Shown here: positions 30,160-48,931 of the stretch, one piece after another
Layout of the letters: every line of letters starts with the position of its first letter
Numbering within the stretch: position 1 is the first letter of the stretch
Assembly (NCBI GenBank): GCA_965207065.1
Contig: OZ242260.1
Span: 128,001 to 192,000 of the forward strand
Length of the DNA stretch: 64,000 bases
Source: a bacterium
GTDB lineage: Bacteria > UBA8248
Reading direction: 5' to 3'
Notes under the pieces: generated by a model
What the model saw: only the letters and a program-made list of their open reading frames with translations
Told to the model about the DNA's origin: nothing
The model's database searches: none
Position numbers and translations under genes: made by a program

Positions 30160-31188
30160 ATGCGACACTTTTCACTGATGTCTCTTTTATTACTTTCGCT
30201 TACCGTCGGCTGTGTCGGTGGCGGTGGTTCCCCTCCGCCTCCCATCCCGGCGCCGGCACTCATGCCCACTCCCCAACCGTTTCGAACGCAGACGACCTTC
30301 GTCGACAACGTCCTCAGTGTTGACGTGCGCTACCACGAAGGCCGCACCCGCACACTCGATACCGTCAGGCATCAGCAAGCCTCATGGGGGCTTTACCTCC
30401 CCCGGCCCTTGCAACCCGGCCATACCAGCCGCGAATGGCTGCTCACGGAAAACCACTACGACGGCAGGATTCTGCTCTACACCGTCGTCGATTGGGATGA
30501 CGACAACCCTGCCGACTACCTCGCGGCCGGATGGTGGCTCGTCTATCCGTCCGGCGCACCCCATTTAGCCGTCGAATACGCCACGCGCGGCGTCTTTGTC
30601 GATGGCCCGGAACTCGACCCCGCCCGACCGCCCGACCTCCCCCTGACCGGCACGGCCACCTACATCGGCGGCGCTGGCGGCCTCTACACGTACAACTACG
30701 GCCGCGACTGGGGCAAGGAGTTGGTCGGTTCTTCCGAGATGACTGAATTCGCGGGGGTTATCGCTTTTACCGCCGACTTCGACAGCAAGCGCATCACCGG
30801 TTGCCTCGGGTGTCTCGAGCCGATCGAGACCTCACCCGGCCGCCACCTCTATCCGATCTTGTCCTGGCGGAGTCCCGATCCCGCATCGTTGCCGTCCGAT
30901 TACGACCTGTACTTTTCCGCATCCTTCAATGCCAAGGGCGCATTCGAGGATACCGCGATCAGCGTCACGCATTCCGAACGCAATATCATGACCTCCGCCG
31001 GGACGTGGCGCGGCCAGTTCTCGAACATACCGGACGTCGACGGCCACCCCCGCCGCGTGGTCGGATCGAGCGATGTTCATTTCGCCGAAGATGATGGCTC
31101 GAGTGGACGCTTTACGGGCATCTTCGATGCGCTTACGCCCGCAACGATCACGCCACCCGATGACGGCAATGTGGGCAATTCGAACTGA
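30160..31188 (+). CDS. hypothetical surface lipoprotein, transferrin-binding-protein-like beta-barrel region
   Basis: Lipobox LTVGC, Gly/Pro linker, DYLAAGWW, LPLTGTATY.G, FTADF, GTWRGQF. Confidence 0.6.
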   Translation: MRHFSLMSLLLLSLTVGCVGGGGSPPPPIPAPALMPTPQPFRTQTTFVDNVLSVDVRYHEGRTRTLDTVRHQQASWGLYLPRPLQPGHTSREWLLTENHYDGRILLYTVVDWDDDNPADYLAAGWWLVYPSGAPHLAVEYATRGVFVDGPELDPARPPDLPLTGTATYIGGAGGLYTYNYGRDWGKELVGSSEMTEFAGVIAFTADFDSKRITGCLGCLEPIETSPGRHLYPILSWRSPDPASLPSDYDLYFSASFNAKGAFEDTAISVTHSERNIMTSAGTWRGQFSNIPDVDGHPRRVVGSSDVHFAEDDGSSGRFTGIFDALTPATITPPDDGNVGNSN

Positions 31189-32030: not shown

Positions 32031-33212
32031 TTATCGATTAGTACAGTAGGGACTGCGAAGTCCCTGCCTCGCTTCCGCAAGCGGCCGGTCGAACTGTTTT
32101 ACCACGGAAGCGAGGCAGCCACTATTTGCTAAGTCCCGTTGTGCTGTCTGGAACATCTGGACATAAACTCTGAGTTTGGTGCACTGGTCACTACTTTTTC
32201 GGGTTAAGGTTGCCAGCGTTCGTGCAATCCTCTGTCTGACTCTTCGCTGGGCCAGCTCACAAGATTGGCTGATCCTTCGAGTCCTTCCGCTTCTATCGAT
32301 TACCCCACCCTGGTTCATTCCACCGCCCGGGGAACCCGGATTCATATTCTCCTCTTTGCGCATTTCTCGTTCTTCATCCCGGATCATTTGTTCCAATTCA
32401 TCCCATTTTGTTTTATCCGGCAAGTCTACTCTATCCTGCTCATCCGGCAAGTCTACTCTATCCTGCTCATCTGGCAGTTCTGCTCTATCCTGCTCATCTG
32501 GCAGTTCTGCTCTATCCTGCTCATCTGGCAGTTCTACTCTATCTTGCTCATCTGGCAGTTCTACTCTATCTTGCTCATCTGGCAGTTCTGCTCTATCCTG
32601 CTCATCTGGCAGTTCTACTCTATCTTGCTCATCTTCCTGGTTTTCCTTTATTGCTTCATCTATTTCATAGAATTCGCATGTTACTTTACCGACTGAAATG
32701 GAGGGATTCTCCCCGAGTGGATTCCACCTCTCAACACCTTCCTTGATAGCTGCGTGCTGCGAATCAATCTCTTTCATGCCAGATTCTTTATTTTGTTTAT
32801 ACTTCTGGTAGAGCAGATCTCCATGTAGTTGATTAAATGGGTATGTTTTATAAAAAGTTGTCCCGGAGCCGGCAAAAAGGCTTTCTGCAAAGCCTTCCAG
32901 CTTGGTGATCCCGAATTTTTCCAAACCATTCAATTCTAAAGTAAGTTTTACGCAATTTTTTGAACCTAAAAAGCCGTAATTTGAATGAAATGCATATTTG
33001 TATTCACCCCTATTCGTTCGCCCTACATATCTCACATCAAATGACACATTAAATCCACATGGCTTACGCTTCCACTTCACTCTGGTGTCGTAACACATAA
33101 AATCATCCCAATCTGGTCGGCTCAAATCAGCATCGGCATTAGACGACGGCATCATTGAGCAGGTCATCACAAAAAAAACAACAATCAGTTTCAACTTGGT
33201 TTTGGCATTCAT
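32031..33212 (-). CDS. secreted hypothetical protein with 9-aa tandem repeats
   Basis: Signal peptide, SD GGGGAG, (DEQDR[VA][ED]LP)x8, Cys-containing C-terminal helical region. Confidence 0.75.
   Translation of the reverse strand: MNAKTKLKLIVVFFVMTCSMMPSSNADADLSRPDWDDFMCYDTRVKWKRKPCGFNVSFDVRYVGRTNRGEYKYAFHSNYGFLGSKNCVKLTLELNGLEKFGITKLEGFAESLFAGSGTTFYKTYPFNQLHGDLLYQKYKQNKESGMKEIDSQHAAIKEGVERWNPLGENPSISVGKVTCEFYEIDEAIKENQEDEQDRVELPDEQDRAELPDEQDRVELPDEQDRVELPDEQDRAELPDEQDRAELPDEQDRVDLPDEQDRVDLPDKTKWDELEQMIRDEEREMRKEENMNPGSPGGGMNQGGVIDRSGRTRRISQSCELAQRRVRQRIARTLATLTRKSSDQCTKLRVYVQMFQTAQRDLANSGCLASVVKQFDRPLAEARQGLRSPYCTNR
32415..32630. repeat. 27-bp x8 coding tandem repeat
   Basis: Unit ATCYGGCARKTCTRCTCTATCYTGCTC repeated 8 times without spacers. 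Confidence 0.95.
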
Positions 33213-33278
33213 GGTCTTACTCCCCGAGTTGTGTGTGACAGTTTAATTTTCGCCATAAAGGCCAAGGTACTTTGTTGT

Positions 33279-33514
33279 GAAATTCGTGTTCTCCAGTCTC
33301 GTCACCTTAAAGCCATGACGCCCCAATGCCGCTCCGATATCATTCGCATCGTTCAGCGGGTTCACCAGCTTTGTCGCAGACCGCTAAGATGTGTTGCCGA
33401 TCACCAGCGCAATCCTCTATTCTGTCAGTTCTGCTCGGTGAAAATCTAAACCAGCAATCCCTCCAGTAACCCAGACAACAAAATGTAGAGCGGCATTGCC
33501 AAGCTCTCCCGCAT
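33279..33514 (-). pseudogene. decayed caspase-family (C14) gene 5' fragment
   Basis: Manual translation: *RIALVIGNTS*RSATKLVNPLNDANDIGAALGRHGFKVTRLEN; TAG at 33417 and 33384; frameshifted signal-peptide-like start near 33514. Confidence 0.8.
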
Positions 33515-33596
33515 GATTTGCAGTCCAATCTCGCAAGGATAGTGAAATTCTCATGACCCAAGACATCGCCGAAAGAAATTCGAGTTTTCGGCGACT

Positions 33597-34538
33597 CTAA
33601 TTCTCCAAAATACTTAGAACCTCTCTTTTGAGGGAAATTGAATCCATTTTCATATGGACAGCTCTCTTGCGAATCATCGCCAAGAGCTTTGGCCAGTCGC
33701 GCACCCAGCAACATTGATGATCGAATTCGGGGACAGAGAAAAAATGGACATTTGCCCGGGAAACTCGTTGGCGATACCGCTTCATGACCGCGGGAGGCAC
33801 AACCAAGTCCCGTCCGCCATGAAAGTGAAATTCACGCGACAACCCGAGAGCGGGCACATGCTCGGATGGATTGAGAGAATCTTTGAGAGGCGATACCTGG
33901 TGATGATTTGCCCAGGCGGAGATATCCAGAGGCGCGGCGACCGTAACCAATTCATCCACATCCATTCGGCGCGAAGCGACGAGCGTTGCAATAACGCCTC
34001 CGCCGGAATATCCGACGAGCGTGAGTCGATCTTCGGAAGACAACTTAGAATCCGTGATTGCGCGGTCCATCGCCTCAATGACTTCCGGCGAGTATCGCCC
34101 AGTAGTCCAGAGAGAAGAGTCACAACTGGTGATGAGCTTGCTGCCGACATATTGGCAGGGTCTCGCAAGATAAAGAACACCAGGGTCGGGAACGCGCAAA
34201 GCCAAGCGGAGAGCGACTGGATCATCGGGGGTAGGATCACTTGAAACCTGAGAGCGACTAAGCCACGCATTTCCGTCCCCCTCGATATAGACAACTATGC
34301 TCCCTGGGCTACGGCCCGGTTTATGGAAACCGATTATCGGAATTCCTTCGTGCGCAAACTGCTTATATTTCCAATCTGAACATGCCGGAAGCGGACATAT
34401 CCCCGATGCGCCCTCATATTCTGATGTTGCGCAACCCATCATCACACATGCTAAGACGATGAAGAACACTCGAAAGCAACGACACATACCCACATGACAG
34501 GCAACCGGATGTGAAAGCAGTGCTACCTTTCGATTCAT
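33597..34538 (-). CDS. alpha/beta hydrolase lipoprotein
   Basis: Lipobox MMGC, VYIEGDG, DPTP, YLARPCQY, nucleophile GYSGG, GGRDLVV, FDHQCCW. Confidence 0.85.
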   Translation of the reverse strand: MNRKVALLSHPVACHVGMCRCFRVFFIVLACVMMGCATSEYEGASGICPLPACSDWKYKQFAHEGIPIIGFHKPGRSPGSIVVYIEGDGNAWLSRSQVSSDPTPDDPVALRLALRVPDPGVLYLARPCQYVGSKLITSCDSSLWTTGRYSPEVIEAMDRAITDSKLSSEDRLTLVGYSGGGVIATLVASRRMDVDELVTVAAPLDISAWANHHQVSPLKDSLNPSEHVPALGLSREFHFHGGRDLVVPPAVMKRYRQRVSRANVHFFSVPEFDHQCCWVRDWPKLLAMIRKRAVHMKMDSISLKREVLSILEN

Positions 34539-37018
34539 AACCCGGCGAGCGCGAAGTCCTCGCCGCGTGAATAGCCGACGGGTTTCTGGCTGATAGTTTC
34601 CCTGACAAGCCGACGGGAAAGAAGCGGCATTTCCCTCGTTGCATACCTGATAATCTCACCTACGGAAATTTTTTCATTTCGATCTTCATCCGCCGCGCCC
34701 TGGATACCTTCGAGTATCAGATAGGTCAGGGCGCCATGTGGCACGGAGAGCAGTTCGATTGCATCCTCATCCGCCCGCGAAGCCGCCAGTATATGAATGC
34801 CGCCCACACGCGCGATTCTGCGCAAAGTTTTTTGTCCGACGGCATCATCGAGCGCCCTTCCCGCTGAGGAGGATACGGCGTCAACGACTGCGCCGGACCG
34901 GCATGAATCAAGAATGAGAAACACGCGCTGCGCCTGAGTTTTCGTCAAGGAATGCATCAAGCGCCGACTGGAGATACCGTGCCGGCGTATCAACTCGGTT
35001 TTCCTCTCCGCTTTCGTGTTCCAGGCAAGCGTGTACGGGAGAAGATACCATTCCCAATTACCCTTGCTGCCCTCCTCTCTCAATGCGTAGCCGTGACCAG
35101 CAAAAAAGACCACCAGAACATCCTGGGGCGATTGGGATTTTCTCGAAAGGTGCTCTTCAATCGTGATTGCCTTCGCATGAGAATCCAACAGGGAAACCAC
35201 GCTCACGTCACTGTATAAGTCTCCACTCCGGTTACGCAGCACCGAGACGACAGCATTCGCGTCGTTACGAGTGTATTCCAGCTTCCAGTCAGGCCGAGCA
35301 TAGTCGCCGATACCAATGGCCACCACTTGCATCCTGGGCCGGCGTGGCTCAGGGGCCGCAAGCGTCACCCTCGTAAACGCCGGTTGGCCTTCGACCCCTG
35401 CAGGGCCAACCCCAATCACTTTGAAGGTGTTTTCCCCTGGAGTAAGCGAAACCGCATATTCAATGATATCGCCTATAGGATCGGAGACCATCTTCTCGGC
35501 AGGAACGAGCTTTCCATTGTGATACAGCCTGATTTCGAGCACATCCCGTCGGGGATAGTTCGAGGGTAGTCTGATTTTGATCCTTGAACGCCCATCAGCA
35601 TCGACCTGAAGACTATCAATCGGATCGATCGAAACGCTCGGAGGCGAAACATAGCCTTCTTCGGATAGATCGCGAATGTCTTCATTCAGGAAAGGTTGCG
35701 GTCCGCTACCAAGTTTCCCCAACAGTCCAGGCTCGAAATAGCTCTCGGAGAAAGCGTCGACCGGAAGTGTTTGCGCTACTGTCTCGCCAGCCCATGCCAG
35801 CGCATCGATACCGTTCTGAGGTCCATCGAATCGGCCTTTGCGGTCAAGAACTGTCCATCCGACATCTGTGGAAATCAAACGCGCGATGCGCGCCTGCTCA
35901 TCGAACGAATAGATCCCAACCGTTCCCTTCGATTCTCCGACGAAAATCCATCTTCGAGCGCCGTCCACTAAAAGCGCGCTTGCGGACTCTGTAGCCAGTT
36001 TCAGCGAAGTGACCTGGCTGATTCCAGCCGATATGGCCCAGATACTAACCTTGGCATCCTCTCCACTCGCTGAGACATGCATACCACCCCGGTCAACCAC
36101 GAGGAGTCGAATGGCGCCGGGATGGGCAGTTTCTCGCACAGAAATCAGCTCCGGGACTTCTTGGTCCGGGATGCGCCAAACACAGATGTTGCCTTTTTCA
36201 TCCCCGAATATCACTCGCTCGTCATCAGGCGCAAAAACTCCCGCAGTTACTGCAATAGAGTCCTCACAACCATCGATTCTCGTCGTTTTTTGCGACCCTC
36301 CGCTCTGTGCGACTCTCACAACCATCGTTCCCTGAACCGTGTTGAATACGATCTTCGAACCGTCTGAGGAGATAATTGGTCGACTATCAGGGTCGGCATC
36401 GGAAAACTGTTCGACTTCATCAGAACCATTGCGTTTCACAAACCAGAAGCCGTCAACCTCACTACGATATGCCACGACATTTCCATTCCCTGACAAGACT
36501 GGTTTGAATTCAGAATCGATTCCTTCAATATCCTCACCAATCTGCTGAACCGAGCCGTCTGGACGAATGGAGAATAACGAACCGTCCCTGCGGACGACTA
36601 TGGCTTCCAGGGAGTCCCCCTCTCCGCGAATGGCGCCTGAGGCAATCTCGTTTCCCAGGACTCCTCCCAATTGCACTCCGCGCCGGAGGTCCCACAACCT
36701 TGCGCTTTCATCTCCAAGTACGGTGAACAGATATGCCCGTGCCTTATCCGCATGTAGCTCAGTTACCGGGCCGGCTACGTCGCGGGTAATGTTGAGAATG
36801 GGGCGAATAACGGTGCGAACTGATCTGATGACCGGCTTGGTGAGATTTCGAATGGAACGACGCAATCTACCCAATCCCTGGGCGTCCGCAACCGACGGAA
36901 TGCATGCCATTACAATCCAAAGAAAAAATAACCCACACAGTGTGAGGCAAAAGAAACAACGTCCATCAACCGTTCTTTGGCGTTTCATATCATTGGGCGT
37001 CAGAAGGTTGGTTGCCAT
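34535..37018 (-). CDS. exported WD40-repeat + Ig-like + caspase-family (peptidase C14) protein
   Basis: Signal peptide ending ADA, WD40-like repeats (ARLWDL, GNICVW, KVSIW), GRFDG linker, VVAIGIGDY, NDA, catalytic FAGHG and LDSCRSG. Confidence 0.88.
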   Translation of the reverse strand: MATNLLTPNDMKRQRTVDGRCFFCLTLCGLFFLWIVMACIPSVADAQGLGRLRRSIRNLTKPVIRSVRTVIRPILNITRDVAGPVTELHADKARAYLFTVLGDESARLWDLRRGVQLGGVLGNEIASGAIRGEGDSLEAIVVRRDGSLFSIRPDGSVQQIGEDIEGIDSEFKPVLSGNGNVVAYRSEVDGFWFVKRNGSDEVEQFSDADPDSRPIISSDGSKIVFNTVQGTMVVRVAQSGGSQKTTRIDGCEDSIAVTAGVFAPDDERVIFGDEKGNICVWRIPDQEVPELISVRETAHPGAIRLLVVDRGGMHVSASGEDAKVSIWAISAGISQVTSLKLATESASALLVDGARRWIFVGESKGTVGIYSFDEQARIARLISTDVGWTVLDRKGRFDGPQNGIDALAWAGETVAQTLPVDAFSESYFEPGLLGKLGSGPQPFLNEDIRDLSEEGYVSPPSVSIDPIDSLQVDADGRSRIKIRLPSNYPRRDVLEIRLYHNGKLVPAEKMVSDPIGDIIEYAVSLTPGENTFKVIGVGPAGVEGQPAFTRVTLAAPEPRRPRMQVVAIGIGDYARPDWKLEYTRNDANAVVSVLRNRSGDLYSDVSVVSLLDSHAKAITIEEHLSRKSQSPQDVLVVFFAGHGYALREEGSKGNWEWYLLPYTLAWNTKAERKTELIRRHGISSRRLMHSLTKTQAQRVFLILDSCRSGAVVDAVSSSAGRALDDAVGQKTLRRIARVGGIHILAASRADEDAIELLSVPHGALTYLILEGIQGAADEDRNEKISVGEIIRYATREMPLLSRRLVRETISQKPVGYSRGEDFALAGL

Positions 37019-37292
37019 ACGAAGCAGGAGAAACGCCTTTTTTCCGAGAATCCTGCTCAGACGTTTCTTTGACAGTCTCAGCTTTGTCGCTGTTGGTTTT
37101 CAAAGTGGGTCGTGTGACGGTACGAACGGATCTGATGACCGGTTGCGTGAGATTCCGAATTGAATCTCTCAATTCACCGGACCCCTCGGCATACGCAACC
37201 ATCGGGATACTCAGCATTACAACCCAGAAAAAGCAATATCCAACGATTACGGAGGAGGAGTGACATTCAACAGCTGTTGTTGTTAATTTCAT
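36990..37292 (-). CDS. small exported protein paralogous to the N-terminus of the WD40-caspase
   Basis: FFWVVMLSIPMVAYAEGSGELRDSIRNLTQPVIRSVRTVTRP versus FLWIVMACIPSVADAQGLGRLRRSIRNLTKPVIRSVRTVIRP. Confidence 0.65.
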   Translation of the reverse strand: MKLTTTAVECHSSSVIVGYCFFWVVMLSIPMVAYAEGSGELRDSIRNLTQPVIRSVRTVTRPTLKTNSDKAETVKETSEQDSRKKGVSPASYGNQPSDAQ

Positions 37293-37320
37293 GTCATCTC
37301 GCATCATTTGATGACATATT

Positions 37321-39330
37321 TCAGCGCGAATCGGGCGAAACGATATTGTATTGCAGCGTCGCGATACTCCAACCTGAGCCACGAGCAGTATTGGGTACTG
37401 AAGAGCCGGATCGTAGGGCTTCTCCTATCTCGACGAGATAGGCCGCCGGAGACGGCACCACACTCAGGTCTTTATGCAGCGAAGCCAACTCCAAAACCCG
37501 ATCGTTCTTATCAGTCACAATAGCAACGAGCAGACCAGCACCAATTGGTGGGGTTGCCCGAAAACGAAAGCCGGCTTTCTCTCCTGGCAGGCGCACGGTT
37601 TCGCCCGGACGCATTGAGGATGAAACACCGCTGCGCAAACTTTGCTCATTGGGAAATATCTGAACCAACTCTCCCGCCACATTGATATCCAGCAATACGA
37701 GATGCCCCTTGCGGTCGCTTTCGACGATGATATCCAGATTGGTCCCTGGTGCGAGATTTACTCCCGGGTCGATTCGTAGTCGGACGCCTTTCTTCACGTT
37801 TGATGTCGGGCGAGCCGACGGACGAACAAGAATGTCTTTCGCGAGAGTAGCGTTTCGGGACAAACCCGCGTTTGCATTAGTAAACGCGGGGACCTCGAGC
37901 CGACCCGACGCCACCTGAACTTGTGGCGTCAAACCGAGGCGGCAATCATCGGAATGCCTTTTGCAGTACGCCTCGGATTCTTTGAGCACATACCGGTGGA
38001 GCTCGTCCATCGTCACGATGCCGTCGCGGTTTTGATCCGCCTTTCCATCACGCGCTCCCCAGAGCAGGCGTCTCGTATACACGCTTCCGCCACCCGAACG
38101 GCTCGAGGCTTCTCTGTCCACCAGCGCTTTCTGATCCGATCGGACGGCCGTCCAGATGGCGAAATCGGGATCGCTCGACTTCAATAGGGGTTCCTGCCGC
38201 GATTCTCCCTTGCCACCAACGCCGCGCGTTCGCGCGATTCGAATCGGCGAACCATCCGGCAGGCGAGGCGTCTTTATGTATTTCCAGCTCTCCAGGTCTC
38301 CCGCGCTTCTGGTGCTCGTGCCCGAATGGCAGGCATCGACCACGACATGAACCCGACGGCCAACTAAACGACCTAACAGAACACCGAGTTCGTCATCCGT
38401 AATCATGCCTTTTATCTTGCCGCTCTCATCCACGGATGCATCGACAGGGACTAATGTTTCATCCAGGTTGTCTGCTTCGTCTCCGTCCGTGTCGGGTTGT
38501 TGAAAACCATGGCCACTGTAGAAGAGGAATACCTCATCACCGGGATTTGTCCCATCGACCAGCCACTCCTTGACCGAGGACATAATGTTTTTCTTGGTCG
38601 CCTCTCTATCCAGCAAGAGCCGGACGTCCGATTTCTTGAATCCCACATGCCCTTTGATGAAGTCCTCTATATCCTTGGCGTCGTTCACCGGCCCGTTCAA
38701 GCGAGACACGTGCTGATATTTGTCGATTCCGATGAGAAGCGCCCGCCTGCGATTGCGCTCGACATTTTCGGCGGGCGCACTGCCTCCTAACTTCGTTATT
38801 TCGACGCGCCTGTTCCGCGCATGCGTCGTCGGAATCCCGTCGATTGGAAAACTCTCTCCCAATCCGACCTCAACCAGACGGTTTCCGACCACGCCCATTT
38901 CGTTCTTGAGGTAGCGCGTCACTGCGCGGGCGCGCCTTGAGGACAAACCTCGATTGTACTTGCTGCTTCCGGTGCTGTCGGTGTGGCCCAGTACTGCAAA
39001 CATTAACGGGCTGAGCGCATCTGTTTTGAGGGCTTTACCCAGTTCTTTCACCTGCGCCAGGGCGGTGCGCGTGAACCGAGCCGAATCGATTTCGAATTGA
39101 ATGGCCGGAAGAACAACTCTCGCCGGTCTCGCATCGGTGGGTTCCGAAACGATTCCCCTTGTCCGAGGCTTGGGCTTCATCTGGCGGACGATGTCGTCCG
39201 ACTTGACGATCTCTCCCCCGCTTGCCGGCGGTATCGACATAACCAAGAAACTCAGACAAGCGGTGGCCACGATACCAAGGCGGGTCGGTGATATGGGAAA
39301 CAACGAATGGAAACGCGCTGAGAGCCTCAT
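37321..39330 (-). CDS. exported OmpA-like + caspase (C14) + DUF4384 protein
   Basis: Signal peptide; OmpA (IQFEIDS, GHTDSTG, NRGLSSRRA, NRRVEI); ALLIGIDKY, FYSGHG, DETLVP, VDACHSG; C-terminal GHLVLLDI..G.LVQIFPN. Confidence 0.9.
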   Translation of the reverse strand: MRLSARFHSLFPISPTRLGIVATACLSFLVMSIPPASGGEIVKSDDIVRQMKPKPRTRGIVSEPTDARPARVVLPAIQFEIDSARFTRTALAQVKELGKALKTDALSPLMFAVLGHTDSTGSSKYNRGLSSRRARAVTRYLKNEMGVVGNRLVEVGLGESFPIDGIPTTHARNRRVEITKLGGSAPAENVERNRRRALLIGIDKYQHVSRLNGPVNDAKDIEDFIKGHVGFKKSDVRLLLDREATKKNIMSSVKEWLVDGTNPGDEVFLFYSGHGFQQPDTDGDEADNLDETLVPVDASVDESGKIKGMITDDELGVLLGRLVGRRVHVVVDACHSGTSTRSAGDLESWKYIKTPRLPDGSPIRIARTRGVGGKGESRQEPLLKSSDPDFAIWTAVRSDQKALVDREASSRSGGGSVYTRRLLWGARDGKADQNRDGIVTMDELHRYVLKESEAYCKRHSDDCRLGLTPQVQVASGRLEVPAFTNANAGLSRNATLAKDILVRPSARPTSNVKKGVRLRIDPGVNLAPGTNLDIIVESDRKGHLVLLDINVAGELVQIFPNEQSLRSGVSSSMRPGETVRLPGEKAGFRFRATPPIGAGLLVAIVTDKNDRVLELASLHKDLSVVPSPAAYLVEIGEALRSGSSVPNTARGSGWSIATLQYNIVSPDSR

Positions 39331-39360
39331 GATGTGTCCCTCCAGGCGTTGATTTAAAGT

Positions 39361-39993
39361 CTAGTCGATAAGAATCACCTGCTGAGCCCTGGCCCATACA
39401 CGATGCTTTTTGCGCAAGGTGATCGATAAATCCTTCGCCACCGATTGCGCCGAACCGTTCAATGCCAGAAACGGACCCGCGCTGTTTTTCTTATTGACCA
39501 TAGCCGGGGTCAAAGGGGCATTCGTCTTCGACGCAATGACAGTGAGCAATTCCGCGCCCTTGGGACGCGAAGCCGTAAGCATATACTTGGAACCCTTCCC
39601 GGGAATACGAAGCCCCGCACTGGCTTTCACGAAATTATTTTTCGCGTAACGGTTGGGAAAAATCTGATGCACCTTGCCGCTGGTTCCCGTGTCGAAAACC
39701 CAGATATAAGCGTCCTCGGAGGGCTTGACCGTGAGCACCACGTTGTCACCATGCTTGTACTTGCGGTTAGCACGGTCCACGCTGGCATTGACGGATAAAC
39801 CCGAAGCAGCGCTCGCTCCGCTAGGCTTCGCCGGCTGGATTTTCGCCATAGGCATCTGACGAATATCCAAATCCTTCAAGTACGACTCCGCCAAGGCATC
39901 GCCCAAGCCCACGCCCCCAGCATGGAACGCTACGGCAACCACCATAGCTACAACACTGACTCCAATGAAACGAAATCGAGAAGTTATTTTCAT
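39361..39993 (-). CDS. exported DUF4384 domain protein
   Basis: Signal peptide, YKHGDNV, AYIWVF..G.VHQIFPNRY, PKGAELL.VIAS. Confidence 0.85.
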   Translation of the reverse strand: MKITSRFRFIGVSVVAMVVAVAFHAGGVGLGDALAESYLKDLDIRQMPMAKIQPAKPSGASAASGLSVNASVDRANRKYKHGDNVVLTVKPSEDAYIWVFDTGTSGKVHQIFPNRYAKNNFVKASAGLRIPGKGSKYMLTASRPKGAELLTVIASKTNAPLTPAMVNKKNSAGPFLALNGSAQSVAKDLSITLRKKHRVWARAQQVILID

Positions 39994-40099
39994 TGTCCCA
40001 ATCTCCTTCTTCGTTTGGGTTGAAAGGTATCGTCCCCCGAATCATTAGCCCCTAGACAATTCGTTCATTAGCAAATTCGCCCGTCCGAGGTACATTCGC

Positions 40100-41401
40100 T
40101 CAATTGCCGACAATCGAGATAAACAGCGTCCTCATGCTCAGATCGCTCGGGTTGATGCGATCGCGGAACTGTTTCACTCTCTCGTAAAATTGCTCCGGGG
40201 TGAGGTAGAGGCTCGCGACTCCACCTCCTGCGCTGCTCAGAATATCCGCACCGGCCAGAAACTCCAGTTTTTCCCGGGTAGCGATGAGATAGAAAGCTTC
40301 TCTGCCCGCCGGTGGCTTCACGGTTACCCTCATACCGCTATCCTTCAGCGGAAAATCGACGATCTCGGCCGCCTTCATCGGCATGTTGTCCATCAAACGT
40401 GTCACCTGACACGACGTGCTCACATGGAAAACGCTCATAAAGGTGGGAGCACCCACCCGCATTTGAAAAGTGAGCGGTTCGCCGAAATTGAACTTATTGT
40501 TCGGCACCGCCCACGCCTCGGCAATAAATTTGCTTATTGCTCTAAGCGGTCGCAGGTTACATTCGGTGTGCTTGGCTTTTTTCGGGGCGCTCGTCATTTT
40601 GGATATGAAGAGTGTTCTCATGCTCAGATCATCCGGATTCATTCGGTCGCGGAACTGTTTCACTCTCTGGAAGAATTGCTGGGGGTTGAGGTCGAGGCGC
40701 GCGATTCCACCCGCCCCGGTACTCAGGATATCCGCACTGGCCAGAAACTCCAGTTTTTCCCGGGTTGCGATGAGATAGAACGCCTCCCTGCCCGCGGGTG
40801 GTTTGGCGATCATTCGCATTCCGCTGTCCCGCAGCGGAAAATTGACTATCTCGGCCGCCTTCATCGACATGTTGTCCAACAAGCGCGTTACCTTACACGA
40901 CGCGCTCACATGGAAGACGCTCACGTAGGTAGGAGAACTCACTCGCATCTGGAATGTGAGCGGTTCGCCGAAGTTAAACTTGCGATTCGGCACTGCCCAT
41001 GCCTCGGCAAGAAATGTCCTGCCCGCTTTGAGTTTCTTCAGTCCGCATCGGGTGCGCACAACCTTCTTTCGCTTTCCCATCTGCGCCTTCTTCCGCATCT
41101 GCTGCTTCGTTCCCGCCTGAGAAATTTTTTGCTTCAGCATCTGATCTCGTTCCTTCGACATCTGTTGTCTTTCCTGCTGAAGACGCATCCTTTGTTCACT
41201 CTCAGCTTGTTCCCTCTGCATTCTCGCCTGCCTTTCGGCCCCTTCCTGAACCGTAGTCATGACATCTTGAGCTGCCCTTAAGTCCTCCGGGTCGCAACCC
41301 GTCGCAGTGCCTAACAACAAGACCAGGCAAAGTCCAAACAACCCCCGAATTCCAATAGATGCGCAATTGTTTTTGCTGCGCTTCATCGTCACGTTTTTCA
41401 T
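40100..41401 (-). CDS. lipoprotein with coiled coil and two tandem DUF4384-like domains
   Basis: Lipobox TATGC, Q/R/E-rich helix, two repeats 486 nt apart (FNFGEPLTFQM...PPAGREAFYLIATRE). Confidence 0.8.
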   Translation of the reverse strand: MKNVTMKRSKNNCASIGIRGLFGLCLVLLLGTATGCDPEDLRAAQDVMTTVQEGAERQARMQREQAESEQRMRLQQERQQMSKERDQMLKQKISQAGTKQQMRKKAQMGKRKKVVRTRCGLKKLKAGRTFLAEAWAVPNRKFNFGEPLTFQMRVSSPTYVSVFHVSASCKVTRLLDNMSMKAAEIVNFPLRDSGMRMIAKPPAGREAFYLIATREKLEFLASADILSTGAGGIARLDLNPQQFFQRVKQFRDRMNPDDLSMRTLFISKMTSAPKKAKHTECNLRPLRAISKFIAEAWAVPNNKFNFGEPLTFQMRVGAPTFMSVFHVSTSCQVTRLMDNMPMKAAEIVDFPLKDSGMRVTVKPPAGREAFYLIATREKLEFLAGADILSSAGGGVASLYLTPEQFYERVKQFRDRINPSDLSMRTLFISIVGN

Positions 41402-41465
41402 GAGCAGGCTCCTTTGTTTTTCTCGATAGGCGCGGTCATGCCTCCTACTATCACCCCCGACCTTC

Positions 41466-43226
41466 CTAAAAGAAAATCTTCACGAAAACGTTGCCGCTCG
41501 TCGTTTCTTCTTCGTCTTTCCTGCTGGTGGAAATCGATAGACTGAACTCGGCGCTCGAGCCCAACGGTGAGCGGAGACCGACTTTCCCCTCCCAGCCAAA
41601 CTTGTCTCTCACGGACGTACTTCGAACGATGTCGTAATCCATTGACGCGCCGACAAACAGGCGGGCATCGGCTTTCACCGCAAATGCACATTCTCCGCCT
41701 GCAATCGCCTGGCCGAGGTAGATGTTTTCTCCGCCGCCTTCATGTGTATAAGCGAGTTGACCGAACCCGCTTAATTCGACCTTGCCAAATTGCTTCTGCG
41801 CGAGCATGGTCAGGGAAAACAGCGTGCGCATCGCCTTTTCATTGTCTTCCGGCGTCGGGTTGAACTTCTTTTTTTTGTTCAGATAGGTGAGCGCGGCCTG
41901 CGGCACGAGCGTAAGGTTTTTATTAAGAATATGTGCCGTATAAGCCGTCGCCGTGAGACCTTGCGTCCGTCTTTGGGTCCCTCCCAGCAACGACTCCCTG
42001 GTATACTCCGTGCCCAAGCCGAAACCGAGCAGACTCTGCGGGGTGAGCAACGTGTCCATCATGACGAGAACGTAACGCGAGTTGGCTTCGAAGAGGCCCT
42101 CGCCACCACTCGATTTGCTGTAGCCTATGTCTATTGCCAAATTCGGCGGATAATCGGGAAGCGCCTCGTCCCCTGCGTTGAGTCCTGTTACTCCGCTCGA
42201 AGTTCGCGCCGGCCTGGCGAAACTGCTCCCGCCCGCAGGACGCAGCTTCTGAACCCGGTTCACCACCGTGCGTGAAAGATAGGCGGAAGCCGCGCGGATC
42301 GTTGCAAGCGTTGCCTCCCTTTCTGAAACATGCTCGGCGCAGCGTCTCGCCGCAGTCGCGTGGCCACGCGCTGCAGTCGCCGCCTCACTTGAATTTTCTG
42401 CCGCATCCGTCGCATCCGTCGTCAGCATACCTGCTTGTCTCGTCGCATCTCGCGCATCATCCGCCGCGCTCTTGGCGGCGTCCGCCGCCTCTCGCGCCGC
42501 GTCCACATGCCGCGCAATGGAAGCAAAACTCTGACCAGTCAGGTAATCTGCCGCCTTGTTCGCCGAAACAGCGGCTGCTCTCGCCGCTTTCGCCGCTTTT
42601 CTCGCCGCCTCCGCCGCCTTCTCCAGGTCATCTGCTGCATTTGCAGCTGCCTCTCTCGCTGCTCTAGCCGCTTGTTCCGCCTCGTCCGCCGCTTTGTCCG
42701 CATTGTCTGCAGCATCTCGGGCATCGTTCACGGCGTTTCGTGCATCATCCAGCGCTCTTTGCGCTTCTGCTAAATCTTGAGCTGTTGGACTCCTTGGCAC
42801 AGTAACTGTTGTTCCATCTGCGGATGCTATGGAGACGACAGTAGCTCCCGCATCCGCTGCTGCATCCGCCGCTGCTCTCGCATCAGCTGCTTCCTTCGCT
42901 GCTTCCGCAGCAGCTTTCGCAGCAGCAGCGGCTTGCTCTGCCTGTGTCGCCGCTGCTTCCGCTTTGTCCTTTTCGCTTTTAACCATCGATGCTTTGCTTA
43001 CTGCTGTTTTTTTCTCTTCGCCTGCCGATTCCGCTTCATTTTGCGCATCGTCCGCAAATGCCACACACTCTTTCGCCTTGGCGACGATGCTACGCGCCTC
43101 ATCGATGATCCTCTGAATCTCGTCGAGGTCGGGAAGGCCCTGCGCGTGAGCGGGCTGGAAGCCGGCAAAGAGCACAAACGTGAAACATATATGCAAAACA
43201 AATACACAACGTGTGAATAGAGTCAT
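41466..43226 (-). CDS. autotransporter-like outer-membrane protein with Ala-rich coiled-coil passenger
   Basis: Signal peptide AHA, about 270-aa Ala-rich helix, GLNAGD linker, amphipathic beta-strand C-terminus ending VFVKIFF. Confidence 0.7.
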   Translation of the reverse strand: MTLFTRCVFVLHICFTFVLFAGFQPAHAQGLPDLDEIQRIIDEARSIVAKAKECVAFADDAQNEAESAGEEKKTAVSKASMVKSEKDKAEAAATQAEQAAAAAKAAAEAAKEAADARAAADAAADAGATVVSIASADGTTVTVPRSPTAQDLAEAQRALDDARNAVNDARDAADNADKAADEAEQAARAAREAAANAADDLEKAAEAARKAAKAARAAAVSANKAADYLTGQSFASIARHVDAAREAADAAKSAADDARDATRQAGMLTTDATDAAENSSEAATAARGHATAARRCAEHVSEREATLATIRAASAYLSRTVVNRVQKLRPAGGSSFARPARTSSGVTGLNAGDEALPDYPPNLAIDIGYSKSSGGEGLFEANSRYVLVMMDTLLTPQSLLGFGLGTEYTRESLLGGTQRRTQGLTATAYTAHILNKNLTLVPQAALTYLNKKKKFNPTPEDNEKAMRTLFSLTMLAQKQFGKVELSGFGQLAYTHEGGGENIYLGQAIAGGECAFAVKADARLFVGASMDYDIVRSTSVRDKFGWEGKVGLRSPLGSSAEFSLSISTSRKDEEETTSGNVFVKIFF

Positions 43227-43496
43227 TTAATAGTCACCTTTCGTAGGATTGAACCAAGTGGCTAAGAGCCGCATTCTCATGGTGTCTTCCTGCTGGTTGT
43301 TTCTTCATATATTCACGCCATACGAGGAATGTGAATCCGGTCGTTTTGCTTTGGAAGGTTTACCTAGATGAAACGCATGCTGTTCAATACGCCAATCTTG
43401 GTAAAATCACCGATGTCATTTACCGTCGCGCCCGACCGGTTCAGATGATTCTATAAATTTCTGTGTTGCTCGTTCTGTCTATTTTGCAGTACTTAA

Positions 43497-43542
43497 AGTA
43501 TAGGAAGCTGAACGCTGATTCGCGCCCCCAATTTATGGGGGG
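43497..43542 (-). promoter_or_regulatory. putative activator-dependent promoter of the caspase operon
   Basis: -10 TATACT (43497-43502); palindrome CCCCCAATTTATGGGGGG (43525-43542) centred near -43. Confidence 0.6.
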
Positions 43543-43619
43543 AAGAGGTGATTTATTGGAATTTTTTCAGTGGCCAGGGAAGGGAGATATTCGGAAAGGT
43601 GGACGACGTCGTTATAGGC

Positions 43620-44789
43620 CTAGGACTGGTTCTGCCTTTGGTCTCGAGTCTCCGGAACGTAGGCCAGCGGCAGCAAAAACCGCATAAGATCTGCCTGCCG
43701 GGAGAGGCCGAGCTTGGTGAGCATGTTCTTTACGTGCCAGCGAATCGTACTTTCCTTTCGGCCCGTCGCCGCGGCGATCTCATGGATGCTCATTCCTTCT
43801 GCCAACAGCACCGCCACCCGGCTCTCCGCCATCGTCAGGCCGAGGGTCGCCCCGGCCATGGCCGGATCGATACGGAGCCGGCTCTCCGGGTCCACGACCA
43901 GAACGAGCGCCGCAACCGGCCAGACGTGAAGGTCCGTCTCCTGCTGAACCACCGGGTTGACGTGCAGCAACAGCGGAAGGGCCGATGCACCACGCCTTAC
44001 CATCGTAGAGCCGCCGATGCTCTGAGCCCCGAACGGCGGCAGCGCACGCTTAAGCAGTCCTTGGAGATTGGCGTTGTCCTCCGATTTGCGGGCGAACAGG
44101 AAACCGCGCTCGTCGAACAGACCATCTCCGGTCCTCAGTAAATCCCGGACACGGTCGTTCATTTCCACGATCCGCCCGCGCCGGTCGAGCTGGATGATGC
44201 CCAACCCGGTGGTGTCTAGCAGCTCCGTGAGGGACGCTCCCAGAGCGCCCGCGCTGGCCAGCGCCTGCCGGACGCTCACGTATAGGCGGATATGGGGCAG
44301 GAGACGGCGGAGCGAGTCGATTTGGGCGGACGACCAGCTGCTGCCGTCAACCGGGTCGTGGACGAACCAGCCAATGCTCAAGCTGTCGGGTCCGTCCAGG
44401 CGCACGTTGATGGTGTTCCGGGCATACACACGGGTCGAGAAATCATTGAATACGACCGAGGTCATCCGCTCCTTCTCGGTGTAGAGGTCGGCCATATGGA
44501 CCAGTTGGCTGTCGGGGCGATGCTGCAGGCGTGGGACACGCTCGTCCAGGGGGTAGTAGACCTCGAAGTACTCACGTTCCCATTCGTGGTGTCGTTGCCC
44601 GTGGTAGAAGAACCCCGCGTAGTAGAACTGGATGTCCTCCCCGGAATCAATATCGCCGATCACGAGGCTGTTGCCGTGCACGCGGAGGATGTCGTCGATC
44701 AGCGCGGAGGCGGTCGGCCAGTGCGTATCGTCCAGCGCCGCCTCTTGCAATGACACCAGGATGCGCTCGAACTTCCCCCGTTCGCTCAT
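43620..44789 (-). CDS. LuxR-type HTH regulator with N-terminal sensor/PAS-like regions
   Basis: C-terminal GLTMAESRVA.LLAEGMS..EIA..TGRKESTIRWHVK..LTKLG.SRQADL; PAS-like GIIQLDRRGRIVEMN. Confidence 0.88.
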   Translation of the reverse strand: MSERGKFERILVSLQEAALDDTHWPTASALIDDILRVHGNSLVIGDIDSGEDIQFYYAGFFYHGQRHHEWEREYFEVYYPLDERVPRLQHRPDSQLVHMADLYTEKERMTSVVFNDFSTRVYARNTINVRLDGPDSLSIGWFVHDPVDGSSWSSAQIDSLRRLLPHIRLYVSVRQALASAGALGASLTELLDTTGLGIIQLDRRGRIVEMNDRVRDLLRTGDGLFDERGFLFARKSEDNANLQGLLKRALPPFGAQSIGGSTMVRRGASALPLLLHVNPVVQQETDLHVWPVAALVLVVDPESRLRIDPAMAGATLGLTMAESRVAVLLAEGMSIHEIAAATGRKESTIRWHVKNMLTKLGLSRQADLMRFLLPLAYVPETRDQRQNQS

Positions 44790-45136
44790 GGCAGCGTCCT
44801 CTATAGCGGACTCTCTACCAGTCCATATCCCAATATCACGGGCGGCAGGGTTTTTATTTGTTACCCGTACGCGCCGCTACAATAATGGGCATGAACATCG
44901 CCGTGGCCGAACCGTCTCACCTTCTGCAGGGCGAAATCGACGGCATTGTGTTCGCGCTGCCGGAGCGCGAAAAGTTTTGTCCCGGAAGCGGTAACGAACC
45001 GCATTCCCGGGCCAAAGTCAATTGAACAAATCCGACATCGTATTTCACTTCGCCGGTGTTCAATTCTGCTTCGCTGGCGGTACAGAGGTATGCACCCGTT
45101 TCGCTCTGCATGTTCAGGCCAAATTACAATAATTCA

Positions 45137-45182
45137 AGTATAGGATATCGCGCGCTTCTTGGCCCCCCAAATATTGAGGGGG
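45137..45182 (-). promoter_or_regulatory. second copy of the palindrome + TATACT promoter
   Basis: -10 TATACT (45137-45142); palindrome CCCCCCAAATATTGAGGGGG (45163-45182) centred near -42.5. Confidence 0.6.
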
Positions 45183-46193: not shown

Positions 46194-47132
46194 ATGGCGC
46201 AATCAGCACCCGGCAAGGCCTACCGAAACGGAATCTCGATAATAGAACTCGCTGAAATGTTCCCCGATGAGGATTCGGCCCGGAAGTGGTTTGAATCCCA
46301 GCGTTGGGGCGATCAAAGGTGTTGCCCTCATTGCGGAAGCGTCAAGACGAGCGATGCCTCTCACAAGTACATGCCTTACTGGTGCACCGATTGCCGAAGC
46401 TATTTCAGCGTTCGCACCGGCACGCTCCTTGAATCATCCAAGGTTCCTCTCAAGAAGTGGGTATGGGCAATCTATCTACACCTCACGAATCTCAAGGGCA
46501 TATCCTCGATGAAGTTGCACCGGGATATAGGCGTGAGCCAGCCGACGGCATGGTTCATGCTCCAGCGTATCCGCAAGGCGTTTGAGGATAATGACGATCC
46601 TCCCTTCGGCGGCCCGGTGGAAATGGATGAAACGTATTTCGGCGGCAAGGAGAGGAACAAGCACAACTCGAAGAAGGCGAAGGCCGGACGCGGGCCGGTA
46701 GGCAAGGTCGCCGTTGTAGGCGCGAAGGACAGGAAAACCAACAAGGTGAAGGCCCGGGTGGTGGACAGCGTGGACGGACAGACCATCAGCGATTTCGTGG
46801 ACGAGCATATCCTGCCCGGAGCGGAGCTTTACACCGACAGCGCAACATCCTACAATCGGGTTTCAGGAATCGAGCATCACGCGGTGAATCATTCAGTCGG
46901 GGAGTATGTGAGGGATATGGTTCATACAAACGGCGTGGAAAGCTTCTGGTCGATGCTCAAGAGGGCGCACAAGGGCGTCTATCACAAGATCAGCCCGAAG
47001 CACCTTCACCGGTACGTTGCAGACTTCGCCGGAAAGCACGGCATCCGCCCCCTCGATACAACTGCCCAAATGGCCGCGCTGGTTCACGGCATGAACGGCA
47101 AGCGGCTCAAGTGGCGGGAGTTGATTGCATAG
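46194..47132 (+). CDS. IS1595-family transposase
   Basis: Zn ribbon CPHC..CTDC, FSVRTGT, VEMDETYFGG, LYTD, VNHS, HTNGVESFW. Confidence 0.95.
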   Translation: MAQSAPGKAYRNGISIIELAEMFPDEDSARKWFESQRWGDQRCCPHCGSVKTSDASHKYMPYWCTDCRSYFSVRTGTLLESSKVPLKKWVWAIYLHLTNLKGISSMKLHRDIGVSQPTAWFMLQRIRKAFEDNDDPPFGGPVEMDETYFGGKERNKHNSKKAKAGRGPVGKVAVVGAKDRKTNKVKARVVDSVDGQTISDFVDEHILPGAELYTDSATSYNRVSGIEHHAVNHSVGEYVRDMVHTNGVESFWSMLKRAHKGVYHKISPKHLHRYVADFAGKHGIRPLDTTAQMAALVHGMNGKRLKWRELIA

Positions 47133-47486: not shown

Positions 47487-48735
47487 CTATCTCAATTGAA
47501 GTTTCAGTTTCAGGTATTCCATCCCCCGGTCTCCCTTAATCCGGTTGCATGAGCCGCATAGCAGTTGCAGGTTCTCGATGTGATCCGTTCCGCCGTTCGT
47601 GCGGGCGATGATATGGTCAACCTCAAGATGCCGAATCTCGAAATGCGTCGCGCATCCGGCGCAGTTGCCCGATTGCTCGCCGTACAGTGTCTTCTTGTGG
47701 GTTCTGTAATGGGGAATATCGCCCATATCAGTCCGTTGCGGGATATCCGATCTTCGTACAGCGAGACCAAATAGACCGAGTTCATCCCGAAGGCGCATAT
47801 CGACCAAATCCTGAGCCTTTGCAGATACGTCAATCCCTATCCAGTCGCGTACAAGTCTCTCTGCCGCAACACAAGCCGTGGCGCACCCGCAAAACGGATC
47901 TAACACAATATCGCTCCGATTTGATGACGCCTTGATGATGCGCTCTAAAAGAGCAAGAGGCTTCTGTGTTGGATATCCTGTCTCTTCTTTGTTTGTTGAC
48001 GGAAACCATCCCCTGCGGCTGGATAATTGCATGATGTCCGACCATACGCTCGAAAGCGGCATGCCGGGGCTTTCATCAAGGTATTGCCGGAAAACTTCCC
48101 CCTTGCGTGAGCGTGTACGGTAAGCCCTTCCGTGCTCATCGGTATGGCGAAACCAGTCTTTGATGTACTTTTCAGAGTAGGGAGTATTCTGTCGATTGTA
48201 GAGGTGCTTCCCATAATTTGAGGCGTATACAAGGAGGCAATCGTGAACCTTGACAGGCTTCCCCCCCCCCCGCCCTTCCGCCAGACGGCGTTCCGTAGTT
48301 CCATATAATCTCGTTCACGAAATTGTTTCGACCGAAAATAGAGTCCATGACAAGCTTAAGGTAATGACTGGCGAACTGGTTGCAATGCAGATATATGCTC
48401 CCCGTGGGTTTCAATATCCGCTTCATTTCAAGGATGCGATCCGCCATATAGCTCAAGTACGCCTTATCGCTATCCGTCATGGCCGCAAGCAGCACCTGGT
48501 ATAGCTGGGGGTGCTTTGCCTCGATGAGGTTGATACCCTCGGTGTCCAGGTCGCTGAGAGTCCATATATCCTTGAACTCGGCGCCCTCGGCAGGGCTTCC
48601 TATCGGCGCGGCGTAGTTGGCATTTGAGTTGAAGGGTGGATCAAGATATATCAGGTCAACGGATGCGGAGTTCATCCCCCGCATGATGGGCAGGTTGTCC
48701 CCGGCCCATATTGTTCGATTCGCCCAGTTCTTCAT
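47487..48735 (-). pseudogene. N4/N6 DNA methyltransferase-HNH nuclease fusion, out of frame at a G11 tract
   Basis: LIYLDPPFNS in the 5' ORF; YPTQKP, VLDPFCGC and HNH (CAGC..EVDHI..GG....NLQLLCGSCN..K) in the 3' ORF; removing one G at 48261-48271 gives a continuous 415-aa frame. Confidence 0.85.
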
Positions 48736-48852: not shown

Positions 48853-48931
48853 GGTTCATATGGTTCAAAAGTATTGATTTTATTATGTTTAATTGATTTT
48901 TTATGGTTCATTCATGGTTCATAAATGAACC
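48853..48931. repeat. iteron-like GGTTCAT repeats (right arm, inverted)
   Basis: GGTTCA(T/A) at 48853, 48862, 48905 and 48916, ATGAACC at 48925, in AT-rich DNA. Confidence 0.75.

Follow-up and report, generated by a model that had tools for sequence, protein, structure and literature searches.

The stretch analysed here, hereafter the window, comprises 64,000 nucleotides of contig OZ242260.1 (assembly GCA_965207065.1, positions 128,001 to 192,000 of the forward strand) from a bacterium of the GTDB lineage UBA8248. Between positions 32031 and 44789 it holds a cluster of genes, g1 to g10, in which every long open reading frame (ORF) lies on the minus strand and which encodes two caspase-like proteases together with proteins that carry the domain DUF4384. 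In the direction of transcription, a regulator (g1) is followed by an autotransporter-like outer-membrane protein (g2), a lipoprotein with two DUF4384 modules (g3), a periplasmic protein with a single DUF4384 (g4), a protease with OmpA-like, caspase and DUF4384 domains (g5), an exported mini-ORF (g6), a second caspase with a beta-propeller (g7), a hydrolase lipoprotein (g8), the remains of a third caspase and an exported tandem-repeat protein (g10). A sequence-only reading had presented the genes downstream of the regulator as one exported system; the conserved core is smaller than that cluster and consists of the autotransporter, g3, g4, g5 and g7.

The genes from g2 to g8 are closely spaced. 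The intergenic gaps measure 64 nt (g2/g3), 106 nt (g3/g4), 30 nt (g4/g5) and 13 nt (g5/g6), while g6 and g7 overlap by 29 nt and g7 and g8 by 4 nt; long spacers occur before g2 (393 nt) and after g8 (384 nt). Terminator-like sites are fewer than in shuffled sequence (11 observed, shuffled mean 15.5). The genes g2 to g8 form a tightly packed operon whose products, judging from heuristically predicted export signals, would all work outside the cytoplasm. A profile search of the whole 4.48-Mb genome places all four of its DUF4384 matches and all three of its Peptidase_C14 (C14) matches inside the cluster. No family of Pfam or NCBIfam matches the products of g2, g6 or g10. Public sequencing runs that hold the stretch or part of it amount to 17 rows, none of which is listed as RNA.

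The protease g5 (669 aa, 37321-39330, minus strand, as for all cluster genes below) combines three Pfam domains: OmpA (PF00691, E 1.3e-15, 58 bits, cut-off 27.2), Peptidase_C14 of the metacaspase type (PF00656, E 2.2e-24, 86.9 bits, cut-off 21.4) and DUF4384 (PF14326, E 3.6e-13, 49.8 bits, cut-off 27). This three-domain architecture recurs in at least 120 protein clusters of 48-93% identity. The catalytic motifs are SGHG at residue 272 (H274) and DACHSG at residue 332 (C334). The dyad columns do not vary across 14 homologues, and neither do the Asp at the second position before the Cys and the acidic stretch GDE.D..DE..PVD that follows the His; the acidic residues presumably form the S1 pocket and a Ca2+ site, as in metacaspase structures. 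Compared with the PDB, the family profile finds the yeast metacaspase Yca1 first (4f6o, E 2.5e-31), followed by Candida MCA1, Arabidopsis MC4 and T. brucei MCA2. In the OmpA-like domain the same 14 homologues have G115, H116, T117, D118, N126, R127, L129, S130, R132, R133 and A134 in common. These residues make up the signature GHTDxxG...R, or in longer form GHTD...N..LS..RA, which predicts peptidoglycan binding.

The second caspase, g7 (827 aa, 34535-37018), joins a beta-propeller, an Ig-like middle domain and a C14 domain (Peptidase_C14, E 9e-10, 39.1 bits, cut-off 21.4). Its likely start is Met11 at 36988. The propeller is WD40-like, with Pfam matches that all stay under the curated cut-offs, and comparison with PDB sequences returns weak propeller matches only. 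The catalytic motifs, AGHG at residue 640 (H642) and DSCRSG at residue 704 (C706), are intact, and the dyad is kept in seven of seven syntenic homologues. The wider g7 family has the Ig-like middle and the caspase domain in common and shows highly variable N-termini (56 of 60 metagenome loci). Neither protease reaches the 140-bit cut-off of the EACC1-associated caspase model NF047832, on which g7 scores 66.1 and g5 51.8 bits. The His-Cys dyads that the sequence-only reading had pointed out (H274/C334 in g5, H642/C706 in g7) are conserved across homologues, the peptidoglycan-binding motif of the OmpA-like domain is likewise kept, and from these residues both g5 and g7 are predicted to be active cysteine proteases.

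Two further pieces of the locus are related to these enzymes. The mini-ORF g6 (105 aa, 36990-37307) is, as tblastn shows, paralogous to the N-terminal part of g7 that comprises the signal peptide and an Arg-rich segment. It is confined to this genus lineage, and in the nearest related locus (L001) the ORF is intact, with the same first and last residues and a ratio of nonsynonymous to synonymous substitution rates (dN/dS) of 0.41. Downstream of g8, a pseudogene fragment of about 56 residues (about 33258-33422) contains in-frame stops. It matches PF00656 below the 21.4-bit cut-off (E 8e-4, 20.6 bits) and, over 56 residues, shares 55% identity with the N-terminal end of an intact caspase on metagenome contig L089. 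The description of this fragment as a decayed third caspase was accurate, and it is not a working member of the cluster. On L089 the intact third caspase lies after the g7 orthologue (L089:9439-11592) and carries an N-terminal hydrophobic signal-like stretch, a Peptidase_C14 domain, PG_binding_1 and six MORN repeats. A caspase of this type is the likely ancestor type of the dead fragment in the window.

The lipoprotein g3 (433 aa, 40100-41401) matches PF14326 in two stretches (E 7e-22, 77.7 bits, cut-off 27) and contains a basic linker rich in Lys and Gln. Its two modules arose by internal duplication, with 114 of 154 aa identical; the double module is common to the window and L001 only, and the homologues at L002-L004, L088 and L089 have one module. 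The smaller protein g4 (210 aa, 39361-39993) matches PF14326 with E 4e-22 (78.5 bits, cut-off 27) and has 260 homologues of about 200-217 aa. A conserved KDL..RQ motif lies right after its signal peptide, where K40, D41, L42 and Q46 are invariant. By eye, and in the window only, g4 and g5 also look alike at their mature N-termini (D-I-x-R-Q-M); this likeness was rejected because the consensus of the g5 family lacks it.

In the structural model of g4, whose core has a predicted local distance difference test score (pLDDT) above 85, a helix and a closing strand come after a beta-sandwich (residues 68-178). The model has no Foldseek match in the PDB at E <=0.001, and sequence searches of the PDB with g4 and g8 return nothing significant (best E 0.3 and 0.06, respectively). 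In VIA-align, the g4 model is closest to RbmA (Z 8.0) and to the macroglobulin (MG) domains of CD109, C5, A2M and C4 (Z 7.2-7.9), with neighbours of the complement C3/CD109/alpha-2-macroglobulin type spanning Z 6.7-7.9 overall; Z values up to 8.0 are in the range given for unrelated models or beta-sandwiches and are uninformative. Carbohydrate-binding and PKD domains score about the same as the macroglobulin domains. In the ESM Atlas, where the neighbours of DUF4384 were taken via a stored g4-type homologue (P0183), the domain occurs in fusions with CsgG/FlgO/LPP20 lipoproteins, S-layer LGFP/PEGA proteins and PKD repeats, and one cluster is automatically named 'Alpha-2-macroglobulin bait region/DUF4384'. 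As far as the model can tell, we conclude that DUF4384 is an extracytoplasmic Ig-like module.

The first gene of the operon, g2 (586 aa, 41466-43226), has an AlphaFold model (pLDDT 72.7) with helices at residues 34-113, 149-227 and 235-328 followed by 12 strands (362-585). The closest PDB structures found by Foldseek are the translocators of NalP (E 1.4e-12), then Hbp, EspP, AIDA-I, EstA and BrkA, with E values from 1e-12 to 1e-9 and TM-scores by target of 0.31-0.74. In an alignment of 19 family members, the signal and N-terminal peptide are conserved, the Ala-rich middle varies strongly, and conservation returns in a helix and in the C-terminal region of about 250 residues, which ends in ...VKIFF. 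Although g2 itself has no PF03797 match in Pfam, a type Va-like autotransporter with a 12-strand barrel and a preceding helix is a fair description of the predicted structure, which also agrees with the earlier proposal of an autotransporter-like coiled coil or surface stalk. Most full-length members of the family carry a ..KEC motif near the N-terminus, and C296, just before the linker helix, is invariant; these positions make a disulfide that closes the helical passenger possible.

Export was called with a heuristic of our own (a positively charged n-region, a hydrophobic stretch of 12 residues free of charges, and a small-x-small site) together with a PROSITE-like lipobox pattern. Type I signals are predicted for g2, g4, g5, g6, g7 and g10, with cleavage of g2 placed between AHA and QG, and lipoboxes for g3 and g8, with Cys36 in both; the heuristic is negative for g1. 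As controls, a periplasmic binding protein scored positive (n=1), and three of four cytoplasmic proteins scored negative, the fourth lying near zero. By this measure the claim that each product downstream of the regulator bears a signal peptide or lipobox holds for g2 to g8 and g10. The host genome encodes one Omp85/BamA, one Lgt and five further frames that match the autotransporter family PF03797, so that the machinery for such proteins is present and the host is a diderm.

The conservation of the core was assessed with a g5-based scan of one genome per species, which confirmed 535 relatives; 80 loci from these were retained. All loci among these 80 with a g5 match of at least 50% (L001-L007) have the order g3-g4-g5, with g3 and g4 directly upstream of g5 (7/7). 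The titles of their records read unclassified bacterium, Ca. Spongiihabitans, Binatia (twice), Alphaproteobacteria (twice) and Gammaproteobacteria. The same order is found on the metagenome contigs L088 and L089, and g7 follows downstream in eight of the nine loci (six of the seven genome loci, L088 and L089); the ninth, L005, is a 3-kb contig that ends inside g5. Across the window and these nine loci the order g3-g4-g5 persists at 43-57% protein identity.

A gene for an autotransporter-like protein ending in Phe accompanies g3-g4-g5 in eight of the nine loci, and another lies next to the g7 orthologue on L087; the exception is again L005, where an upstream g2-type gene runs off the contig start. 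Its position varies. The gene precedes g3 in the window, L001, L002, L004, L006, L088 and L089; in L003 and L007 it separates g5 from g7, and in L087 it lies immediately before g7. The g2-type barrel is present in the window, L001, L002 and L005. The positional counterparts in L003, L004 and L087 exceed the PF03797 cut-off, and that in L088 scores 23.7 bits (cut-off 26). BLASTP detects no similarity between g2 and the L003 autotransporter, and the two barrel types are linked by fold and position only. The passengers vary by locus and are made of fn3 domains, Calx-beta domains or helices.

DNA similarity between the window and L001 is confined to 43165-33670, the segment from g2 to g8. Relative to L001, dN/dS is 0.32 for g2, 0.26 for g3, 0.16 for g4, 0.18 for g5, 0.22 for g7 and 0.27 for g8, and all six genes are under purifying selection. 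The expectation that the cluster genes co-occur elsewhere is borne out for g3-g4-g5, syntenic in nine loci, and for g7 and an autotransporter, each present in eight of these; g1, g10 and the caspase fragment are lineage-specific, and g8 recurs at two loci only. The 12.8 kb first described do not form one unit, as similarity to the nearest relative is limited to g2-g8.

Looser versions of the same association are more widespread. Among the 80 loci found with g5, a caspase-DUF4384 fusion occurs in 65, at least two caspase ORFs in 39, an OmpA-like domain in 33 and a separate DUF4384 ORF in 20. Near distant g7-like caspases, DUF4384 is fused to a Ser/Thr kinase (L106 and L133, each of which also has an OmpA-like ORF), to a papain-like C1 protease (L120 and L126) or to CsgG/PG_binding (L098), and in all five loci it is the C-terminal domain of the fusion. 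Distant versions of the cluster are also carried by cultivable strains of Roseospira, Cucumibacter and Rhizobium. These neighbours indicate that the association of caspase, DUF4384 and wall binding recurs both in fused and in unfused form, which suggests a general partnership of DUF4384 and caspases in the envelope.

The operon is also mobile. The cluster lies within a stretch (30-53.5 kb) with a GC content of 0.45-0.57, compared with about 0.60 in the flanks. This island contains an IS1595-family transposase gene (46194-47132, plus strand), the two ORFs of a split DNA methylase, of which the C-terminal one is fused to an HNH domain (47487-48735, minus strand), a VapE-like primase/helicase gene (48908-50425, minus strand) and a fragment of a Mutator-family transposase (51513-52160, plus strand). 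At its left edge, a 342-aa ORF (30160-31188, plus strand) has a lipobox with Cys18, a Gly/Pro-rich start and no Pfam family. A survey of 41 genomes including the window's own, 23 of them of the same genus, found full g7 in the window's genome and in one of the 22 other same-genus genomes. A third genome of the genus, G017, has a decayed copy, a deletion remnant (L083, G017:C15:517793-521116), in which the C-terminus of g5 is out of frame and g6 with the first ~100 residues of g7 is fused in frame to the last third of g8, followed by a g10-like ORF. The flanks of L001 map to other places in the window's own genome. The segment g2-g8 is a horizontally mobile operon. The upstream flank of L001 (L001:1920-5540) is an element of ~3.5 kb that includes a YAcAr/SLOG-domain gene; the window's own genome contains this element at least 10 times (81-87% identity).

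The remaining genes are accessory. The regulator g1 (389 aa, 43620-44789) is of the LuxR/GerE type with a helix-turn-helix domain (GerE, PF00196, E 1.2e-7, 31.7 bits, cut-off 23.5), and its N-terminal 300 aa match no Pfam or NCBIfam family. It had been counted as part of the unit but is lineage-specific, being matched at none of the 80 genome loci. The lipoprotein g8 (313 aa, 33597-34538) has a GYSGG nucleophile elbow and weak alpha/beta-hydrolase matches in Pfam, all under the cut-off. It belongs to an unnamed family of 2336 representative clusters, has no curated NCBIfam family and was found at only two other loci, L001 and L002, which sets it outside the core. The tandem-repeat gene g10 (393 aa, 32031-33212) contains 7.8 copies of a 27-nt repeat, which encode eight acidic nonapeptides of the form DEQDR[AV][ED]LP, and a Cys-containing C-terminal domain. 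It lies outside the conserved DNA block and is lineage-specific; its C-terminal ~95 aa match a neighbour of the L001 operon at 34%, and a similar C-terminus was seen by eye in G017.

Two copies of a motif lie upstream of g1 (45137-45182, minus strand) and ~270 nt upstream of the g2 start (43497-43542, minus strand). Each consists of a C5...G5 palindrome and, ~22 nt further on, a TATACT box resembling a -10 element. The copies differ by indels and were detected by a pattern search, which gives two matches in the window (none expected) and the same two in the whole 4.48-Mb genome. If transcription starts a few bases past TATACT, the centre of the palindrome would lie near -43, the usual position for LuxR-type activators. 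Probably g1 switches on itself and the operon through the palindrome, which is a candidate operator. A sigma-70 scan of the minus strand upstream of g2 revealed no convincing promoter. Rfam has no match in the whole window, so that the long leaders contain no known riboswitch. The long leader of g1 also includes a 64-aa ORF (44917-45111, minus strand).

Together, these genes probably form an undescribed module for envelope proteolysis. The domains, the catalytic residues, the conserved gene set, its purifying selection and its mobility are shown, and the following mode of action is proposed on top of them. The core comprises an autotransporter of type Va-like build, with a surface passenger that differs from lineage to lineage, the DUF4384 lipoprotein g3 and the soluble periplasmic DUF4384 protein g4, the metacaspase-type cysteine protease g5, which would be held on peptidoglycan by its OmpA-like domain and carries a DUF4384 of its own, and the second cysteine protease g7 with its beta-propeller and Ig-like domain. 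The Ig-like DUF4384 modules may act as shared recognition or assembly elements that gather both proteases and their partners on the inner side of the outer membrane or at the wall. There, the proteases would make limited cuts after Arg or Lys in proteins of the cluster itself, with candidate sites in the basic linker of g3, at the N-terminus of g4 around K40-D41-L42...Q46 (KDL..RQ), in the Arg-rich N-terminal segments of g7 and g6, and in the g2 passenger or linker. As a result, the surface structure may be matured, released or regulated. An envelope module assembled through DUF4384, in which two proteases make limited cuts in their own partners, is the reading tentatively preferred here, although we give it somewhat less than an even chance.

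Several points weigh against it. Its binding partners, cut sites and biological output are inferred, and the signal peptides are called by a home-made heuristic alone. The sensor role of g7, the protease cascade and the DUF4384 substrates of the sequence-only reading are hypothetical. On its model, DUF4384 may be a generic beta-sandwich, with no Foldseek match in the PDB at E <=0.001 and uninformative Z values. The fusions with S-layer, PEGA, PKD, CsgG and kinase domains would fit a targeting module that binds wall or matrix equally well, so DUF4384 could equally be a targeting or scaffold module instead of a protease substrate. Complex prediction for mature g7 with the DUF4384 of g4 scored 0.00 in two uncontrolled runs, below the mark, which speaks neither for nor against a contact. 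The autotransporter changes position, its two barrel types show no pairwise sequence similarity, and it is tied to the proteases by neighbourhood alone. No tblastn match to g1 exists in any of the 80 genome loci, and the two motif copies, which flank g1 as direct repeats, are possibly the scar of a duplication. Finally, full g7 in 2/23 same-genus genomes, with one decayed remnant, means that the module is dispensable.

Instead, the genes might be functionally independent envelope genes that happen to share an island, given that the accessory g1, g8, g10 and third caspase come and go and the autotransporter moves. However, the order g3-g4-g5 persists in the window and in nine loci of differing taxon titles with g7 next in eight of the nine, the flanks differ even within the genus while g2-g8 stay contiguous with close or overlapping start and stop codons, and all DUF4384 and C14 domains of the genome sit here, all of which makes mere co-location quite improbable. 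The genes may otherwise serve defence or suicide at the level of the envelope: the variable passenger would be a receptor or decoy for a phage, predator or competitor, its engagement would activate g7, and g7 would in turn activate the wall-anchored g5, which would cut envelope tethers and so kill or seal the cell. Caspase-like proteases are used in known defence systems. The mobile island beside IS1595, split methylase/HNH and VapE-like genes, the patchy distribution within the genus, the fast-varying surface part and the two caspases in series would all suit such a role. Yet PADLOC (PADLOC-DB 2.0, a library dating from 2023) returns only its generic 'caspase' model (g5 8e-26, g7 2.8e-12) with no system-specific partner, besides weak matches to ZorB/MotB, all located in the OmpA-like domain of g5 (residues 113-183). 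The cluster encodes no NTPase, nuclease, gasdermin or other known effector, the proteases score 66 (g7) and 52 bits (g5) against the 140 bits required of EACC1-associated caspases, and the neighbouring mobile genes are fragments. Defence is distinctly unlikely on this balance.

A pairing of protease and guard would reverse the role of DUF4384. Here g3, g4 and the C-terminal domain of g5 would be macroglobulin-like baits or inhibitors that silence the caspases in the periplasm of the producer; the targets would be foreign or host proteins or the envelope in bulk turnover, and the autotransporter would be a co-transferred adhesin. The neighbours of the g4 model among the MG domains of alpha-2-macroglobulin, CD109 and complement C3/C4/C5 (Z 6.7-7.9), the bait-region name of the Atlas cluster and the fusion of DUF4384 to papain-like and trypsin-like proteases (the latter in PMC6426788) favour this arrangement. 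But these Z values are in the range of unrelated beta-sandwiches, RbmA and carbohydrate-binding modules score equally, and the g4 alignment shows by eye no thioester or bait-loop features, so that a guard function is rather unlikely. Transpeptidation in the manner of sortases is a further option, in which g5 would cut a partner after Arg or Lys and transfer it onto peptidoglycan or an envelope acceptor, fixing the lipoprotein or the autotransporter. In its favour, at least 120 protein clusters keep a cysteine protease joined to an OmpA-like domain of the peptidoglycan-binding kind, and the clan-CD enzymes PorU, GPI transamidase and legumain do act as transpeptidases. The characterised metacaspases are hydrolases, however, and no conserved C-terminal sorting signal is visible by eye in g3, g4 or g2, which leaves this option very improbable. 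Also quite improbable is a periplasmic caspase cascade from surface to wall, in which the variable passenger would sense a phage, predator or host, the signal would reach g7, g7 would activate the wall-anchored g5, and g5 would cut or transpeptidate DUF4384-tagged envelope proteins. If true, this would be an apoptosis-like or sortase-like pathway wholly outside the cytoplasm. Limited cleavage within a DUF4384-assembled envelope module remains the reading preferred over these.

Among known systems, the closest enzymes are the metacaspases and orthocaspases (MEROPS C14B; Yca1, Microcystis MaOC1), with which g5 has the His-Cys dyad, the Asp before the Cys and the acidic stretch in common. Those studied are cytoplasmic and tied to cell death or proteostasis. 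In contrast, g5 and g7 carry predicted Sec signals, g5 is fused to a peptidoglycan-binding domain, and both are encoded in an operon with an autotransporter and DUF4384 proteins. The type Va autotransporters NalP, EspP, Hbp, AIDA-I, BrkA and EstA resemble the g2 model in their 12 strands, long preceding helix and terminal Phe. They differ in that g2 has no PF03797 match and that its passenger appears to be an Ala-rich helical bundle of ~300 residues instead of a beta-helix. We know of no description of an autotransporter associated with periplasmic cysteine proteases. In the Tol-Pal system, the periplasmic beta-propeller TolB binds the OmpA-like lipoprotein Pal. The likeness to g7 and g5, a propeller and an OmpA-like peptidoglycan binder, is at most an analogy, and here both partners carry protease domains.

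The domains themselves have been noted before in other settings. According to the relevant passages of two orthocaspase surveys, DUF4384 and WD40 are accessory domains of cyanobacterial orthocaspases, and a trypsin-p20-DUF4384 clade exists in Alphaproteobacteria (PMC7475262, PMC6426788). Within those passages, the sole mention of export is a TAT-like signal on YS pseudo-orthocaspases (PMC7475262, PMC6426788), and the architectures are single proteins, with no conserved operon, OmpA fusion or autotransporter. One group of Csx30 C-terminal domains is a DUF4384, often fused to proteases, according to a preprint (bioRxiv 10.1101/2022.08.17.504292). Craspase (type III-E CRISPR, with Csx29 and its substrate Csx30) likewise brings together a caspase-like protease and a protein in which DUF4384 can occur, but it is cytoplasmic and RNA-guided and uses a CHAT-type protease, whereas the proteins described here are exported and accompanied by no CRISPR genes. 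Searches of the literature on DUF4384, periplasmic Peptidase_C14 and outer-membrane orthocaspases, within its openly accessible part, found no exported operon made up in this way.

Bacterial caspase homologues are numerous, and functional work has dealt almost entirely with cytoplasmic enzymes of cell death and defence. The cluster adds to these a compact, transferable set of five exported proteins with two active-looking C14 proteases, one of which is predicted to be tethered to peptidoglycan. It also gives DUF4384, a widespread envelope domain, a concrete genetic context. Two Cys-to-Ala positions, a candidate regulator with its candidate operator and natural loss variants within the genus provide experimental handles. 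If the proteases process their neighbours, the system would represent a new mode of surface-protein maturation or envelope signalling.

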